DNA from: an uncultured bacterium
GTDB taxonomy: Bacteria; Desulfobacterota_D; UBA1144; Nemesobacterales; UBA2774
NCBI GenBank assembly: GCA_963705505.1
Contig: CAVPJU010000001.1
Location: 1 to 64,000, forward strand
DNA length: 64,000 nucleotides
Reading direction: 5' to 3'
Shown one piece after another: positions 26,519 to 32,284 of this stretch. The position numbers and the translations under genes were made by a program. The stretch's first letter is position 1; the number at the start of each line of letters is the position of its first letter. The notes under the pieces are model-generated. The model worked only from the letters and a program-made list of their open reading frames with translations, did no database searches and was not told the DNA's origin.

Positions 26519-27706
26519 TCAATAACTATGCAGGAATTTCCTTATGCCCCTTACGGCCTGCATGATCCTTTTTTCGTTTTCCACGAGCGCAAACCTCAAA
26601 TATCCTTCGCCGTAATTCCCGAAGCCGACGCCCGGTGAGACTGCGACCTTGGCTTTCTCGATCAGCAGCTTCGAGAATTCGAGCGATCCCATGCTCTTGA
26701 ATTCCTCGGGTATCTCCCCCCAGACGAACATCGTCCCTTTGGGTTTCGGTATGTTCCATCCTGCCTTGGCGAGTCCCTCGACGAGCTTGTCCCTTCTGGA
26801 TTTATACAGTTTCCTCACTTCCTCGACACAGTCCTGGGGCCCGGTGAGCGCCGCGATCGAAGCGACCTGTATGGGGGTGAAGATTCCGTAATCCATATAG
26901 CTCTTTATTCGTTTAAGCGCCGATACTATCCTAGCGTTACCCACCATGAAGCCCACGCGCCATCCCGGCATATTGTAGGTTTTTGAAAGCGAATAAAATT
27001 CAACGCCTATTTCCTGAGCGCCGGGTACTTGGAGAAAGCTCGGTGCCTTATATCCGTCGAAGCACAGCTCGGCGTATGCGAGGTCGTGCACGACGATCAA
27101 TCCCGCTTCCCTTGCGAGCTCATAAACGTCCTTGAAGAATCCGATGTCCACTACAGTCGCGGTGGGGTTGTTCGGGAACGAGATCATCAACACCTTGGGC
27201 TTCGGCCATGTTTCCTTGACCGCCTTCTCGATGCCTTCGAGAATGTTCGAGTCTCTCGTAAACGGAACGCTGTGTACGTCCCCTCTCGAAATAATGACTG
27301 AATATATGTGGATCGGATATGAGGGGTTCGGCACTATGACCGTATCGCCCGGAGACAGGATAGAGAGCATGAGGTGGCATATCCCTTCTTTCGATCCGAT
27401 CGTAGCCACCACTTCGGTATCCGGGTCCAGCTCCACGTCGTATTTCTTTTTATACCACCCGGCGATCGCCCTTCTCAGCTTCGGTATGCCCGCCGATGCG
27501 GAATATCTGTGGGCCCTCGGGTCCTTCGCCGCCTCGATCAGTTTTTTTACGATGTGATCGGGAGTAGGCTGATCGGGATTCCCCATCCCGAGGTCGATTA
27601 TGTCGTCCCCCCTGGCCCTCGCTTTCGATTTCAGCTCGTTGACGATGCTGAAAACGTAGGGCGGGAGACGTCTTATTAATGAGAACTCTTCTGGTGTAAG
27701 TTGCAT
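26519..27706 (-). CDS. PLP-dependent class I/II aminotransferase (AlaC/YfdZ-like)
   Basis: [40 protein letters not shown]. Confidence 0.88.
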
Positions 27707-27799
27707 TTGCGTCCCTTTTTCATTTTCAAGTATTTTATTCGAATCCTTGACAATCTCAAGAAAATTAAGCGAAAATAGTAAAATCTGAATTTAAGGGTC

Positions 27800-28198
27800 A
27801 TGAATAAGAAAACCGGCTTAATTTCGATTTTATTGCTTTTAGTATTTGCTGTGCCCGGTGTATCCTCGCAGGAAGTTCGCCAGTATGGGAATGCATCATG
27901 GTACGGCAATTCCCTCAACGGCAGGAAAACGGCGAGCGGCGAATGCTATGACATGCACGGTTTTACGGGTGCTCACAGGCAGCTGCCCTTCGGAACATTG
28001 GTAAGGGTTAAGAATTTAAGAAACGGCAAAGAGGTAATAGTGAGGGTAAATGACAGGGGACCGTTCGTTAAGAGCCGTATAATAGACCTTTCCCGGGCGG
28101 CGGCGGTATCGCTGGGTATCCTGAACATGGGTACCGTGAGAGTCAGCGTTGAGGTTATCTCCCTGCCTGAAGATGAAAATCCCGGCTCTGCTTCGTAG
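27800..28198 (+). CDS. rlpA: RlpA-family lytic transglycosylase (DPBB domain only)
   Basis: GNASWYG, TASGE, AHRQLPFGT, VNDRGPF, RIIDLS. Confidence 0.9.
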   Translation: MNKKTGLISILLLLVFAVPGVSSQEVRQYGNASWYGNSLNGRKTASGECYDMHGFTGAHRQLPFGTLVRVKNLRNGKEVIVRVNDRGPFVKSRIIDLSRAAAVSLGILNMGTVRVSVEVISLPEDENPGSAS

Positions 28199-28255
28199 CG
28201 GGAATCCTTATTATAGTTTATCCTCTATTATCACTTGCTATCAATTTTCGAGAGC

Positions 28256-28930
28256 ATGAATAATAGATTAGTTCTATTATTGTTAATTCTCCCGGTAGTT
28301 TTTTCATGCGCAAAAAAGAGTGTCGAGTCCACACGTATACCGCAGAAGGGGCTGCCTTCGGGCGGTTATATAGAGGAGGGGTCTACCCAGGTGGGCAAGG
28401 CCTCCTGGTACGGAATAGAGGAGCATAACAAACATGCGGCAAACGGGGAGCGCTTCAGCAAATACGCATATACCGCGGCTCATAAGAGTCTGCCGATGGG
28501 CACAGTCGTGAGGGTGACCAATCTCGAGAACGGCAGGGACGTGATAGTAAAGATTACCGACAGGGGCCCGTTCGTAAGGGGCCGCATCATCGATCTCTCA
28601 TATGCCGCCGCACAGTCGGTCGGCATGCTCCAGAAAGGCACTGTCGAGGTCAAGGTAGAGGTCATTACCACTCCTTCCACGAGGGGCGGCAGTTATTTCG
28701 ATGCGCTTTATACGGTGCAGGTAGGCTCTTTTGCCGACAAAGGCAATGCGCTGACACTTAAAAGGGAGCTCGATATCGAGTATGAGGACGTGAGGGTGGA
28801 GTCGATCGATGTGAGCGGCGATAATTACTGGCGGGTGAGGGTCGGGCGGTACACGGATAAGGATGACGCCGAGGAGACCGCGTCCAGGCTCAGAATGAAC
28901 GGGCACAACGGAAGGGTTATAATGGAATAG
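28256..28930 (+). CDS. rlpA: RlpA lipoprotein with C-terminal SPOR domain
   Basis: Lipobox VFSC, GKASWYG, DRGPF..RIIDLS, YTVQVGSF..WRVRVG. Confidence 0.92.
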   Translation: MNNRLVLLLLILPVVFSCAKKSVESTRIPQKGLPSGGYIEEGSTQVGKASWYGIEEHNKHAANGERFSKYAYTAAHKSLPMGTVVRVTNLENGRDVIVKITDRGPFVRGRIIDLSYAAAQSVGMLQKGTVEVKVEVITTPSTRGGSYFDALYTVQVGSFADKGNALTLKRELDIEYEDVRVESIDVSGDNYWRVRVGRYTDKDDAEETASRLRMNGHNGRVIME

Positions 28931-29045
28931 TTTCATCCCCGTCCTTATATAATATTCGTTTGGGAATTAAAGCGGGCCGGTCCGTCGGAGCGGGGTCAGA
29001 TATAAGATCGCTGATTGATTGTTGAGTTTATCGAGGGTTTGATAT

Positions 29046-29912
29046 ATGAATGAATTCGTAAAATCGCACGGGCTCGGGAACGATTATTTCGTGCTCGACC
29101 GCTCCCGTATCTCATTTGAGCTCACGCCCGAGGTTATAAGGCTTCTCTGCAATAGGAACTACGGTATAGGCTCCGACGGGATATTGCTTCTTCTGCCGTC
29201 GGACAAGGCCGATTTCGGTCTCAGGATACTAAATCCCGACGGCAGCGAGGCCGAGAAGAGCGGCAACGGCCTCAGGATTTTCGCCAAGTATCTCTACGAG
29301 CACGGGCACACGGATAAAAAGGATTTTAAAGTCGATACGCCGGGCGGTATAGTCACGGCCGAATTGGAAGTCAAGAACGGCAGGGTCCCGTTCGTCACCG
29401 TGGAGATGGGGACTGCGAGCTTCGCAAGCGGGTCGATACCCGTGCGCGGGGACGAGAGGGAGGTCGTTAACGAAGAAGTGAGGTTCGACGGCGAGGTGTT
29501 GAAAATCACCGCCGTCTCGGTGGGGAATCCTCACTGCGTTGTTTTTACGGAGGAGCTCGACGAAGGGTACACGAGGCTGCTCGGCCCATTGATAGAGACG
29601 AGCGAGCTTTTCCCCAACCGCATAAACGTTCAGTTCGCCAGAGTCGTTTCGAACGACAGGGTGGAAATAATGATATGGGAGCGGGGGGCGGGATACACGC
29701 TCGCGTCGGGGAGCAGCTCCTGCGCCGTCGCGGCTGCGTGCGTGAAAAACGGCTTTACCGGAAGGAGCGTAACCGTATCGATGCCCGGCGGCGAGCTCGA
29801 TATCGAAATAAGAGAGGACTGGTCCATCAAAATGAGGGGAGCCGTGGAAGAAGTCGCTTACGGCACATTGAGCGACGATTTACTCGAACGTATAAAATCT
29901 CTCGGAGCATAG
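29046..29912 (+). CDS. dapF: Diaminopimelate epimerase family, serine-pair variant
   Basis: KSHGLGNDY, GIGSDG, NPDGSEAEKSGNG, VGNPH, WERGAGYTLASGSS. Confidence 0.88.
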   Translation: MNEFVKSHGLGNDYFVLDRSRISFELTPEVIRLLCNRNYGIGSDGILLLLPSDKADFGLRILNPDGSEAEKSGNGLRIFAKYLYEHGHTDKKDFKVDTPGGIVTAELEVKNGRVPFVTVEMGTASFASGSIPVRGDEREVVNEEVRFDGEVLKITAVSVGNPHCVVFTEELDEGYTRLLGPLIETSELFPNRINVQFARVVSNDRVEIMIWERGAGYTLASGSSSCAVAAACVKNGFTGRSVTVSMPGGELDIEIREDWSIKMRGAVEEVAYGTLSDDLLERIKSLGA

Positions 29913-29984
29913 TGATAATTCGAGTCTCCGCATTGAGGAAATTCGCACGCCTGAAAACCTGATTCTGTTAGTCCTAATCCGAAG

Positions 29985-31235
29985 ATGAGAAAACTTTTAA
30001 TTTCCGCCGGGACGGTCCTTCCCGTTTCCTCAAAGCCTTTAAAAAACGCCTCCGTATTGATCGCGGACGGAAAGATCAGAGAGATCGGAAAATCCGCCGT
30101 CCTCAGAAAGCGGTACGGGAGCACAAACGAGATAGATCTCGGAAAGGGGATACTTCTCCCGGGCTTCGTCAACGCCCATACGCATCTTGAGCTCGGGTGG
30201 ATAAAAAAGAGGCTCCGCAGCTTCAAGGGTTTTACGGGCTGGCTCGAGCAGATCGTAAAAGAGAAGAGGTTGGGCGTTACGAACGGCGAGATTATAGAAT
30301 CTGTTGAAGAGGGGATAGAAACGCTCATAGGCTCGGGTGTGACGACTGTTGGAGAGATATCCTCATACAACGGTATCGATAAGCCGCTCCTAAAAGACTC
30401 CGGTCTGAGGACCGTGCTATTCAGAGAAATTCTCGACAGCAACGAAGACGGAACCGATTTCTCGTCTTTGGAAGAGAGTCCGCTTTTTCAGGAAAGACTT
30501 TTCCCCCATTCGCCCTATTCATGCCGCCCCGGGCTGCTTAAAAAAGCGCTCAGGTCCCACAGGAAGAACGGCATTCCCCTGGGTATTCACCTCGGGGAGA
30601 GCGCTGACGAGGTTAAGTTCTTGCGAGGCGAAGAAAACTTTATAGAAAAAAAGATATTCCCGCTTATAAAAAAAAGCCCGTTTAAAAAGCCCCTGGCCGA
30701 TACACCCGTTTCGTATCTGAAAAATACCGGGCTCCTCGACGGTACGAGGATTACTCTCGTGCATATGGTGCAGGTCTCCGAAGAAGAGGCGGAAGAATTG
30801 CGCAGCCTGGACGCGGCGATAGTTCTTTGTCCGAGGAGCAACCTGTTCCTTCAGGTCGGTGCGCCGCATATTAATCAGTATTTGGATTTCGAAAGACTGG
30901 GCCTCGGTACCGACGGTCTTTCGAGCAATTACAACCTCGATTTTTTCGAGGAGATGAGGTTTTTCCATCTCCTGATATCCCGGGCAGCGGGAGCTAAAGC
31001 TGCTTATAAGACCGTGTATGCGGCGACTCTCGGAGGAGCGAAGTCTCTATATCTCGAGAATAAAACCGGCAGCATAGAGCCCGGCAAAGAAGCCGACCTC
31101 GTTTTTCTCAACACCGGGGTTGAATCCGGCGACCCTTACCTCTCCGTCATTTCATCGACAGCCGGGAATGTCAGAATGGTCATGGTCGGGGGACTCATAC
31201 TTTATTCCGGACAGGAATTCCTTTCTGAAATCTGA
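29985..31235 (+). CDS. Amidohydrolase, probable aminodeoxyfutalosine deaminase
   Basis: NAHTHLE, GEISSY, HSPYS, IHLGES, VHMV, CPRSN, TDGLSSNY; mqnA/mqnD nearby. Confidence 0.75.
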   Translation: MRKLLISAGTVLPVSSKPLKNASVLIADGKIREIGKSAVLRKRYGSTNEIDLGKGILLPGFVNAHTHLELGWIKKRLRSFKGFTGWLEQIVKEKRLGVTNGEIIESVEEGIETLIGSGVTTVGEISSYNGIDKPLLKDSGLRTVLFREILDSNEDGTDFSSLEESPLFQERLFPHSPYSCRPGLLKKALRSHRKNGIPLGIHLGESADEVKFLRGEENFIEKKIFPLIKKSPFKKPLADTPVSYLKNTGLLDGTRITLVHMVQVSEEEAEELRSLDAAIVLCPRSNLFLQVGAPHINQYLDFERLGLGTDGLSSNYNLDFFEEMRFFHLLISRAAGAKAAYKTVYAATLGGAKSLYLENKTGSIEPGKEADLVFLNTGVESGDPYLSVISSTAGNVRMVMVGGLILYSGQEFLSEI

Positions 31236-31237
31236 AA

Positions 31238-32284
31238 ATGTCAGGCCGCGTCGACAAGATATTCGTTTACGGAACGCTTCTCAGGGGGGAGGAGAGGAGC
31301 TGTTACATGCGGGATTGCAAGCTGGTGTCGATGCTCGAAGTCCCGGGAGTAATGTACGATGCGAAGAGGGGTTATCCGGCGGCTTTATTCGGCAGTGAAG
31401 CAGGCTCGGCGGTTACGGGCGAGCTCTACATCATGCAGGACCCGTCACAAAAGATAGCGGAGCTCGACGGTGTGGAGGGGACCGAATCAGGACTCTTCAG
31501 AAGGTCCCAAATTAAACATTCCGGTGCTGAATTCTTTTGCTATGAGCCTGGCCCCCTGCTAAATGACATCATAACGGACGACAACAGGATATTAAGCGGG
31601 AGCTGGAGGACTTACTCGTCCCGCGCCTTTACGGATCCCGTCGATTTCGCGCTCAGGTTCGAAGCTCACATTAAAGAGACATATAAAGAGCGTGCGGATG
31701 AAGACTCTGACGGTATCCTTTATATTAAGGGAAGTATACCCGTACTGGTTACTGCTCCCCACGCGACGGCACACGTGCGCATGGGTAAACTGAAGAGGCA
31801 GGAATTCTATACGGGCGCGCTTGCAGTGTTGCTGCATTCGGTAACCGGATGTCATGCGCTTTACACGGACAGATTGTCGCCGGTCGACCCCAATCACTCT
31901 GACGAATCCCCGTTTAAAGAAAAGATATACGGGATAGCCCGAAAATTCGGCATAGAATTATTGATCGACCTCCACGGGACGGGTTCTGAAAGGCCGGGAG
32001 ACGTTTTCCCGGGCATTGGGAGGAATAAAGAGTTTCTCAACGGAAGACCCGATTTTTACTCCGGGCTTGAACAATCGGCAGCTTCACACGGCGTCTCGCT
32101 CGGCTCGACGGACGTCTTTCCAGCGGCGCGACAGATGACCGTGACCAGGTTTTCCGCGACGAGGCTGGGAATACCTTCGATGCAGCTCGAGATAAACCAA
32201 AGCCTGAGACAGCCCGAAAGTTCGCCTGCGGATTTTATGAAGCTCGTGAATTTTCTCAAGGAGTTCATCGCGCGTCTTTATTGA
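31238..32284 (+). CDS. Fusion: gamma-glutamylcyclotransferase (AIG2-like) domain + N-formylglutamate-amidohydrolase-like domain
   Basis: IFVYGTL..YPA..VTGELY..LDGVEG..SGSW; then VLVTAPHA, LIDLHG, MQLEI. Confidence 0.7.
   Translation: MSGRVDKIFVYGTLLRGEERSCYMRDCKLVSMLEVPGVMYDAKRGYPAALFGSEAGSAVTGELYIMQDPSQKIAELDGVEGTESGLFRRSQIKHSGAEFFCYEPGPLLNDIITDDNRILSGSWRTYSSRAFTDPVDFALRFEAHIKETYKERADEDSDGILYIKGSIPVLVTAPHATAHVRMGKLKRQEFYTGALAVLLHSVTGCHALYTDRLSPVDPNHSDESPFKEKIYGIARKFGIELLIDLHGTGSERPGDVFPGIGRNKEFLNGRPDFYSGLEQSAASHGVSLGSTDVFPAARQMTVTRFSATRLGIPSMQLEINQSLRQPESSPADFMKLVNFLKEFIARLY

Follow-up and report, generated by a model that had tools for sequence, protein, structure and literature searches.

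Diaminopimelate epimerase (DapF), which serves both lysine and cell wall synthesis, works with two catalytic thiols in its textbook form and is a target for antibiotics. The locus described here raises the question of whether a DapF homologue with serine in place of both catalytic cysteines can fill that role and, if so, whether its host depends on it. The gene lies in a 64,000-nucleotide stretch of DNA from an uncultured bacterium (hereafter, the window), whose genome comprises 2.88 Mb in 10 contigs and is 93.6% complete. An initial annotation of this stretch had offered two alternatives for the encoded protein: a serine-based DAP epimerase, or an enzyme with another substrate. The gene and the codons discussed below are:

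29046..29912, + strand: dapF, Ser/Ser-type diaminopimelate epimerase, 288 aa plus stop
29033..29037, + strand: GAGGG, Shine-Dalgarno-like from its sequence, 8 nt 5' of the dapF ATG
29148-29150, + strand: Cys35 codon, in the LCNR / 'CDR' motif
29256..29258, + strand: Lys71 codon AAG, class-specific and adjoining Ser72; Met in Cys-type enzymes
29259..29261, + strand: Ser72 codon AGC, first catalytic Cys position (Anabaena Cys75)
29631..29633, + strand: Gln196 codon CAG, class-specific, 2 residues past the conserved Asn194; Glu in Cys-type enzymes
29694..29696, + strand: Tyr217 codon TAC, class-specific; Glu in Cys-type enzymes
29706..29708, + strand: Ser221 codon TCG, second catalytic Cys position (Anabaena Cys224)
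29715..29717, + strand: Ser224 codon, class-specific; Gly in 42/42 Cys-type rows

In the translation, Ser72 sits within EAEKSGNG and Ser221 within TLASGSS. When aligned by phmmer to solved DapFs (2otn, 9mro and 3ejx), both serines fall opposite the catalytic cysteines of ..CGNG.. and ..ACGTG.., as the initial annotation had claimed; in the Anabaena enzyme (9MRO), PMC12039745 describes these residues, Cys75 and Cys224, as the ones alkylated by aziDAP. The annotation had also considered that other cysteines might align into the active site, but in the alignment to solved DapFs and homologues no cysteine aligns at either catalytic position. The motifs it had listed as intact are all present and are kept in both the serine and the cysteine class: GND (G11-N12-D13), N.DGS (N63-D65-G66-S67), GNPH (160-163) and ERG (212-214). 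With Ser72 and Ser221 standing in for the thiol/thiolate cysteine pair, the predicted enzyme is outside thiol-type DapF in the strict mechanistic sense.

Apart from this replacement, the protein is a genuine member of the DapF family. It scores 249.3 bits against TIGR00652 (cut-off 114.65), with residues 3-276 of 288 covered, and 194.5 bits against PF01678 (DAP_epimerase; cut-off 34.7) in two domain stretches that correspond to both repeats. Its top PDB sequence matches are all DapFs (phmmer, E 3e-61 to 4e-50). AlphaFold2 predicted its structure with a pLDDT of 97.2 and a pTM of 0.93 when given our 125-row alignment A1, the single-sequence model reaching a pLDDT of only 43.5. A Foldseek search of the PDB with the A1-based model returned DapFs at ranks 1-20, the best being 9mro_A (TMq 0.89, rmsd 2.2, 37% identity). 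The model has the two pseudo-symmetric alpha/beta domains of the family with the catalytic positions at the N-termini of the central helices: helices 73-85 and 222-234 begin directly after Ser72 and Ser221. No natural Ser/Ser DapF chain occurs among the PDB matches by sequence (phmmer) or fold (Foldseek), and the serine-bearing matches 2q9h and 2q9j are engineered single mutants. The other activities of the fold that we scored (bifunctional DapF/Glu racemase, histidine racemase CntK and proline racemase) all stay below their curated cut-offs (NF038284, 70.6 vs 350; NF033599, 18 vs 300; PF05544, 23.2 vs 27).

The substrate-binding residues are likewise in place. N12, N63, N74, N161, N194, E212 and R213, which we take to be the DAP-binding positions in line with the literature, are all found in the window DapF. 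In alignment A1, conservation of N12, N63, G73, N74, N161, N194, E212, R213, T218 and G222 reaches 85% or more in each class, Ser/Ser and Cys/Cys alike.

The serine pair is no peculiarity of this one gene. Both positions are serine in 120 of the 120 close homologues listed (75-92% identity), the named ones of which come from metagenome-assembled genomes (MAGs) of Candidatus Dadabacteria, Thermodesulfobacteriota or 'Deltaproteobacteria'. Further afield, the best 150 matches among the cluster representatives of a 1.84-billion-protein library include 92 Ser/Ser and 46 Cys/Cys proteins, together with 2 S/C, 1 C/S, 1 T/C and 1 S/T; the remaining 7 rows (2 '-/S', 2 'S/-', R/S, S/P and S/A) are cut short or misaligned at one of the two positions. 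The natural mixed pairs (C/S, T/C, two S/C and S/T) belong to the full-length DapF-family representatives P0194, P0211, P0246, P0255 and P0267; these may represent intermediates, or their chemistry may be one-directional or of another kind.

Alignment A1, which holds 78 Ser/Ser, 42 Cys/Cys and 5 mixed rows, separates the two classes at further columns as well: K71/M, I78/C, Q196/E, I210/V, Y217/E, S224/G, M246/L and V267/A (Ser/Ser vs Cys/Cys). Lysine occupies position 71 in 79% of the 78 Ser/Ser rows and in 0% of the 42 Cys/Cys rows, where methionine accounts for 93%; glutamine occupies position 196 in 92% of Ser/Ser rows vs 2% of Cys/Cys rows (glutamate in 83%), and tyrosine position 217 in 64% vs 0% (glutamate in 62%). 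Position 224 is serine in 91% of Ser/Ser rows and glycine in 100% of Cys/Cys rows, and position 78 is cysteine in 81% of the Cys-type rows and isoleucine in the Ser/Ser class. Cys35 is present in all 78 Ser/Ser rows vs 27 of the 42 Cys/Cys rows (64%).

On a FastTree tree of the 125 A1 rows, built with the catalytic trait columns excluded, the Ser/Ser label changes 5 times, vs 38.0 times with shuffled labels, and 0 of 500 shuffles gave a value as low; the starred branches of the tree force at least 2 changes. The label is thus strongly clustered on the sequence tree, in a pattern compatible with more than one origin; the representative P0125, with 'MSGNG ... ASGTG', may stand for a separate Ser/Ser origin. 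When a profile built from 69 Ser/Ser rows (alignment A2) was used for searching, 119 of its best 120 matches were Ser/Ser with K71 and Y217, and the other row reads D/S by regular expression. In one Ser/Ser-profile match, the 443-aa protein P0467, DapF occurs together with GNAT acetyltransferase domains (PF13673, PF13302, PF13508 and PF00583), which could reflect either a fusion or two genes merged in gene calling. Named Ser/Ser members belong to Methylomirabilota/NC10, Nitrospirota, Candidatus Solincola (Actinomycetota), Planctomycetota, WOR-3, SAR324, Midichloriaceae, Bacteroidales and Gemmatimonadetes, and include one Clostridium sp. MAG. Since the class includes Bacteroidales and Clostridium MAGs of gut type, the trait may well extend beyond aerobes.

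The codons behind the two serines vary only synonymously. In a set of 38 distinct Ser/Ser genes, the serine at 72 is encoded by AGC (34) or AGT (4) and that at 221 by TCG (18), TCA (9), TCC (8) or TCT (3); this variation at both sites implies drift under selection for serine. We conclude that, as judged from these alignments, the window gene is a member of a large, coherent Ser/Ser branch with its own signature of K71, I78, Q196, Y217 and S224.

Does the host have any other way to make meso-DAP? The initial annotation had asked for a second, Cys-type dapF to be sought in the genome, and none was found: the window dapF is the single PF01678 gene of the assembly at E <= 0.01, and neither PF01678 at that threshold nor TIGR00652 finds a second DapF of any type in the 93.6% of the genome that is present. 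Exactly one TIGR00652 match is found in 29 of 31 genomes up to order level, the source genome included, and all 29 are Ser/Ser (the two related genomes that have no match are 90% and 74% complete). With 29 of 29 single DapFs being Ser/Ser, a Cys-type copy hidden in the missing ~6% of the genome is unlikely. Among MAGs from other groups, the Ser/Ser protein is the only DapF in 4 of 5 (NC10, Bacteroidales, Gemmatimonadetes and another member of the Thermodesulfobacteriota); in the fifth, the Clostridium sp. MAG, a Ser/Ser DapF is accompanied by a Cys/Cys one.

The rest of the pathway is present in the source genome. It encodes dapA (377.8 bits), dapB (299.6 bits), lysA (522.8 bits) and murE (537.6 bits), as well as a DapL at C6:582996-584114 that scores 625 against TIGR03540 (cut-off 593.25). 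Its MurE bears DNPR, which we take to be a meso-DAP signature. A plant-type DapL (TIGR03542) was considered and rejected: all matches in the genome fall below the cut-off, and the best of them is the TIGR03540-type DapL itself. A bypass through meso-DAP dehydrogenase (Ddh) was rejected as well, there being no TIGR01921 match in the 93.6%-complete genome at E <= 0.001. Because DapL yields LL-DAP whereas LysA and MurE use meso-DAP, an epimerase is required, and with the pathway genes present and neither Ddh nor a second PF01678 gene found, the window DapF is the only route from LL-DAP to meso-DAP that we see in this DapL pathway. The genome also contains a second LysA-like PLP decarboxylase in the region C3:16203-19588, which matches in two stretches of one 418-aa frame (114 and 103 bits) below the lysA cut-off; it adjoins an aminotransferase-like gene and probably belongs to another pathway.

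Gene fusions elsewhere in the Ser/Ser branch point in the same direction. Several representatives are fused to a LysA-type decarboxylase (P0148, P0153 and the partial P0146), one to a Mur ligase (P0154) and two to an alanine racemase (P0135 and P0195). Although some of these may be merged gene calls, they fit a role for Ser/Ser DapF in lysine and peptidoglycan synthesis.

Of the two alternatives put forward initially, the serine-based DAP epimerase is favoured by the sole DapF gene, the need for meso-DAP, the retained DAP-binding residues and the fusions in the Ser/Ser branch. The window gene very probably encodes a working housekeeping LL-/meso-DAP epimerase of a natural Ser/Ser type, an activity that we predict from sequence.

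The most serious competing explanation is the second of those alternatives, a neofunctionalised racemase, epimerase, dehydratase or isomerase of DapF fold that acts on a non-DAP substrate while an unrecognised enzyme supplies meso-DAP. The fold does host other activities: the window DapF matches the O-ureidoserine racemase 7vdy with 139 bits, and histidine racemases and PhzF have the same fold. In the related proline-racemase superfamily, loss of a cysteine accompanies dehydratase activity. Paralogy exists in the Clostridium sp. MAG and, as described in PMC13728532, in Anabaena sp. YBS01, each with a Cys/Cys and a Ser/Ser protein, and a GGACT domain is found both fused to one Ser/Ser representative and two genes downstream of the window dapF (see below). 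We nevertheless consider this explanation quite unlikely, and do not favour the other-substrate proposal of the initial annotation: all DAP-binding positions are kept, the gene is the sole member of the DapF family both here and in the 29 of 29 relatives with a match, DapL, LysA and MurE demand an epimerase in a genome where Ddh was not found, the fusions point toward lysine and peptidoglycan, and the scores against NF038284, NF033599 and PF05544 are all below their cut-offs.

A still less probable explanation is that the protein is a dead pseudoenzyme retained for structure or regulation, much as E. coli DapF activates RppH. Both textbook catalytic residues are indeed absent, and E. coli DapF is described as moonlighting with its partner RppH (entries 6d13 and 6vck; PMC13728532). 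However, the substrate-binding residues are kept as strictly as in active enzymes, both serines are invariant across a huge branch, the DapL–LysA–MurE pathway would be broken in whole lineages, and PMC13728532 cites Ser/Ser DapFs as catalytic. As for an error of sequencing, assembly or reading frame that would have made cysteine codons read as serine, AGC at Ser72 is one base from TGC, but we regard this explanation as refuted for practical purposes, since two independent sites would have to be hit, TCG at Ser221 is two bases from either Cys codon (TGT or TGC; the codon argument of the initial annotation holds), the 120 of 120 listed homologues from independent assemblies and the 29 of 29 relatives agree, and the two sites between them employ four synonymous TCN codons and two AGY codons.

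The surroundings of dapF show a conserved gene order (window 26519-32284). An aminotransferase gene on the - strand is followed on the + strand by an RlpA gene, an RlpA gene with an SPOR/FtsN-like tail, and dapF; 3' of dapF, also on the + strand, come an aminofutalosine-deaminase-like amidohydrolase gene and then a GGACT-domain gene. Among 27 named loci of Dadabacteria-like genomes, the RlpA pair lies upstream in 15, the amidohydrolase gene downstream in 16, and the GGACT gene is present in 10. The GGACT protein (31238-32284, + strand, 348 aa) has its gamma-glutamyl cyclotransferase-like domain at residues 8-124, and nothing in Pfam or NCBIfam matches its other ~220 residues. In the Ser/Ser representative P0150, an N-terminal GGACT domain is fused to DapF, which suggests a recurring GGACT–DapF association. 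The class-I/II aminotransferase (26519-27706, - strand) scores 641.8 vs a cut-off of 647 for alanine transaminase (NF006033) and 604.6 vs 648 for LL-DAP aminotransferase (NF006604); the genome's clear DapL is the one on C6.

Returning to the DAP epimerase that we favour, DapA, DapB and then DapL would lead to LL-DAP, and the window DapF would convert LL-DAP to meso-DAP, feeding LysA for lysine and MurE for peptidoglycan. By homology, and in line with the literature as cited in PMC13728532, the reaction would be a cofactor-independent, two-base 1,1-proton transfer in an active site that is predicted to be closed and water-excluding, between the two pseudo-symmetric domains. The roles of thiolate and thiol would fall to a base/acid pair of serines, Ser72 and Ser221, which lie at the N-termini of the central helices. 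The class-specific changes (K71, Q196, Y217, S224 and I78) probably adapt the active site to catalysis by hydroxyls: E to Q196 and E to Y217 remove two acidic side chains and M to K71 brings in a basic one, a combination that may stabilise an alkoxide. As a side effect, the serine pair would escape inactivation by a disulfide. Structures of the Cys-type enzymes from P. aeruginosa and C. glutamicum contain such an inactivating Cys–Cys disulfide (as cited in PMC13728532), and because Cys-type enzymes are inactivated in this way, oxidation resistance of the window DapF is plausible by analogy.

How does this protein compare with characterised enzymes? We set it beside five canonical Cys/Cys DapFs (EC 5.1.1.7): Anabaena 9MRO, B. 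anthracis 2OTN, A. thaliana 3EJX, E. coli 4IJZ and H. influenzae 1GQZ. It has 36-38% identity to them (Foldseek), shares their two-domain fold (TMq 0.83-0.89), and has the DAP-binding residues and the pathway role in common; at the position of Gly47 in Anabaena and Gln44 in H. influenzae it has Gly45, as in the Anabaena and plant type. It differs from them in both Cys-to-Ser replacements and in K71(M), I78(C), Q196(E), Y217(E), S224(G) and M246(L), and its catalytic pair lacks the ability to form a disulfide of the P. aeruginosa/C. glutamicum type. For Cys-type DapFs, PMC12039745 gives kcat/KM values of 1e4-1e5 M-1 s-1.

Engineered serine variants offer a second comparison. C73S and C217S H. 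influenzae DapF (2Q9H and 2Q9J) and C67S and C209S HisR also have a serine at a catalytic position of the same fold, but they are single mutants in thiol-tuned sites with hindered catalysis, made for crystallisation according to PMC11602996, whereas the window protein is a natural double-serine enzyme whose surroundings appear to have co-evolved. In the wording of that source, the Cys-to-Ser change in HisR 'hinders catalysis'. Because such engineered mutants are poor catalysts, a natural serine pair would need a re-tuned site.

The closest relatives by type are the DapFs of Lamer et al. (J Mol Biol 2025), cited in PMC13728532 as having two catalytic serines in the same fold. This bears out the remark, in the initial annotation, that serine-pair DapFs had been reported; our literature search on Ser/Ser DapF returned no report beyond that one, which we found through the citing paper, PMC13728532. 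The window DapF shares with the Lamer enzymes, as they are described there, the family, the fold and both serines, and DAP epimerisation is presumed for it. By its serine pair and predicted fold it is of the Lamer Ser/Ser kind, and it may belong to the same branch as the characterised enzymes, with which it was compared by description. According to PMC13728532, the Ser/Ser DapF of Anabaena sp. YBS01 is inactivated by Ser-to-Cys replacement, and in that organism a Cys/Cys and a Ser/Ser DapF occur side by side, which is read as a possible answer to oxidative stress. The source genome and the 29 of 29 relatives with a match differ from that arrangement in having the Ser/Ser type only. Because the Ser/Ser gene is the only DapF in this lineage, it must carry the housekeeping flux. 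No cyanobacterial Ser/Ser member was found among our named matches, most entries being nameless.

As a kind, then, Ser/Ser DapF is already in print and widespread, and the window gene is an ordinary further member. That a natural DapF can be free of thiols, that epimerase chemistry can run on hydroxyls, and that thiol-directed inhibitors, such as aziridine-DAP and those of the ebselen type, would probably miss Ser/Ser organisms, has likewise been published. The addition made here is a modest one: a lineage that has the serine enzyme as its sole DapF, and a list of class-specific candidate tuning residues. We tentatively suggest, as a reading that is possible but somewhat short of probable, that the Ser/Ser enzyme, in Dadabacteria-like lineages as well as in the NC10, Bacteroidales and Gemmatimonadetes MAGs, serves as the sole housekeeping DAP epimerase rather than as a stress backup, and that it is enabled to do so by a fixed second-shell set (Lys71, Gln196, Tyr217, Ser224 and the invariant Cys35) that re-tunes the site for alkoxide chemistry. 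If the sole-copy reading is true, the breadth of the branch (Ser/Ser in 92 of the 150 nearest cluster representatives) would imply that a substantial fraction of bacteria make meso-DAP without any thiol.
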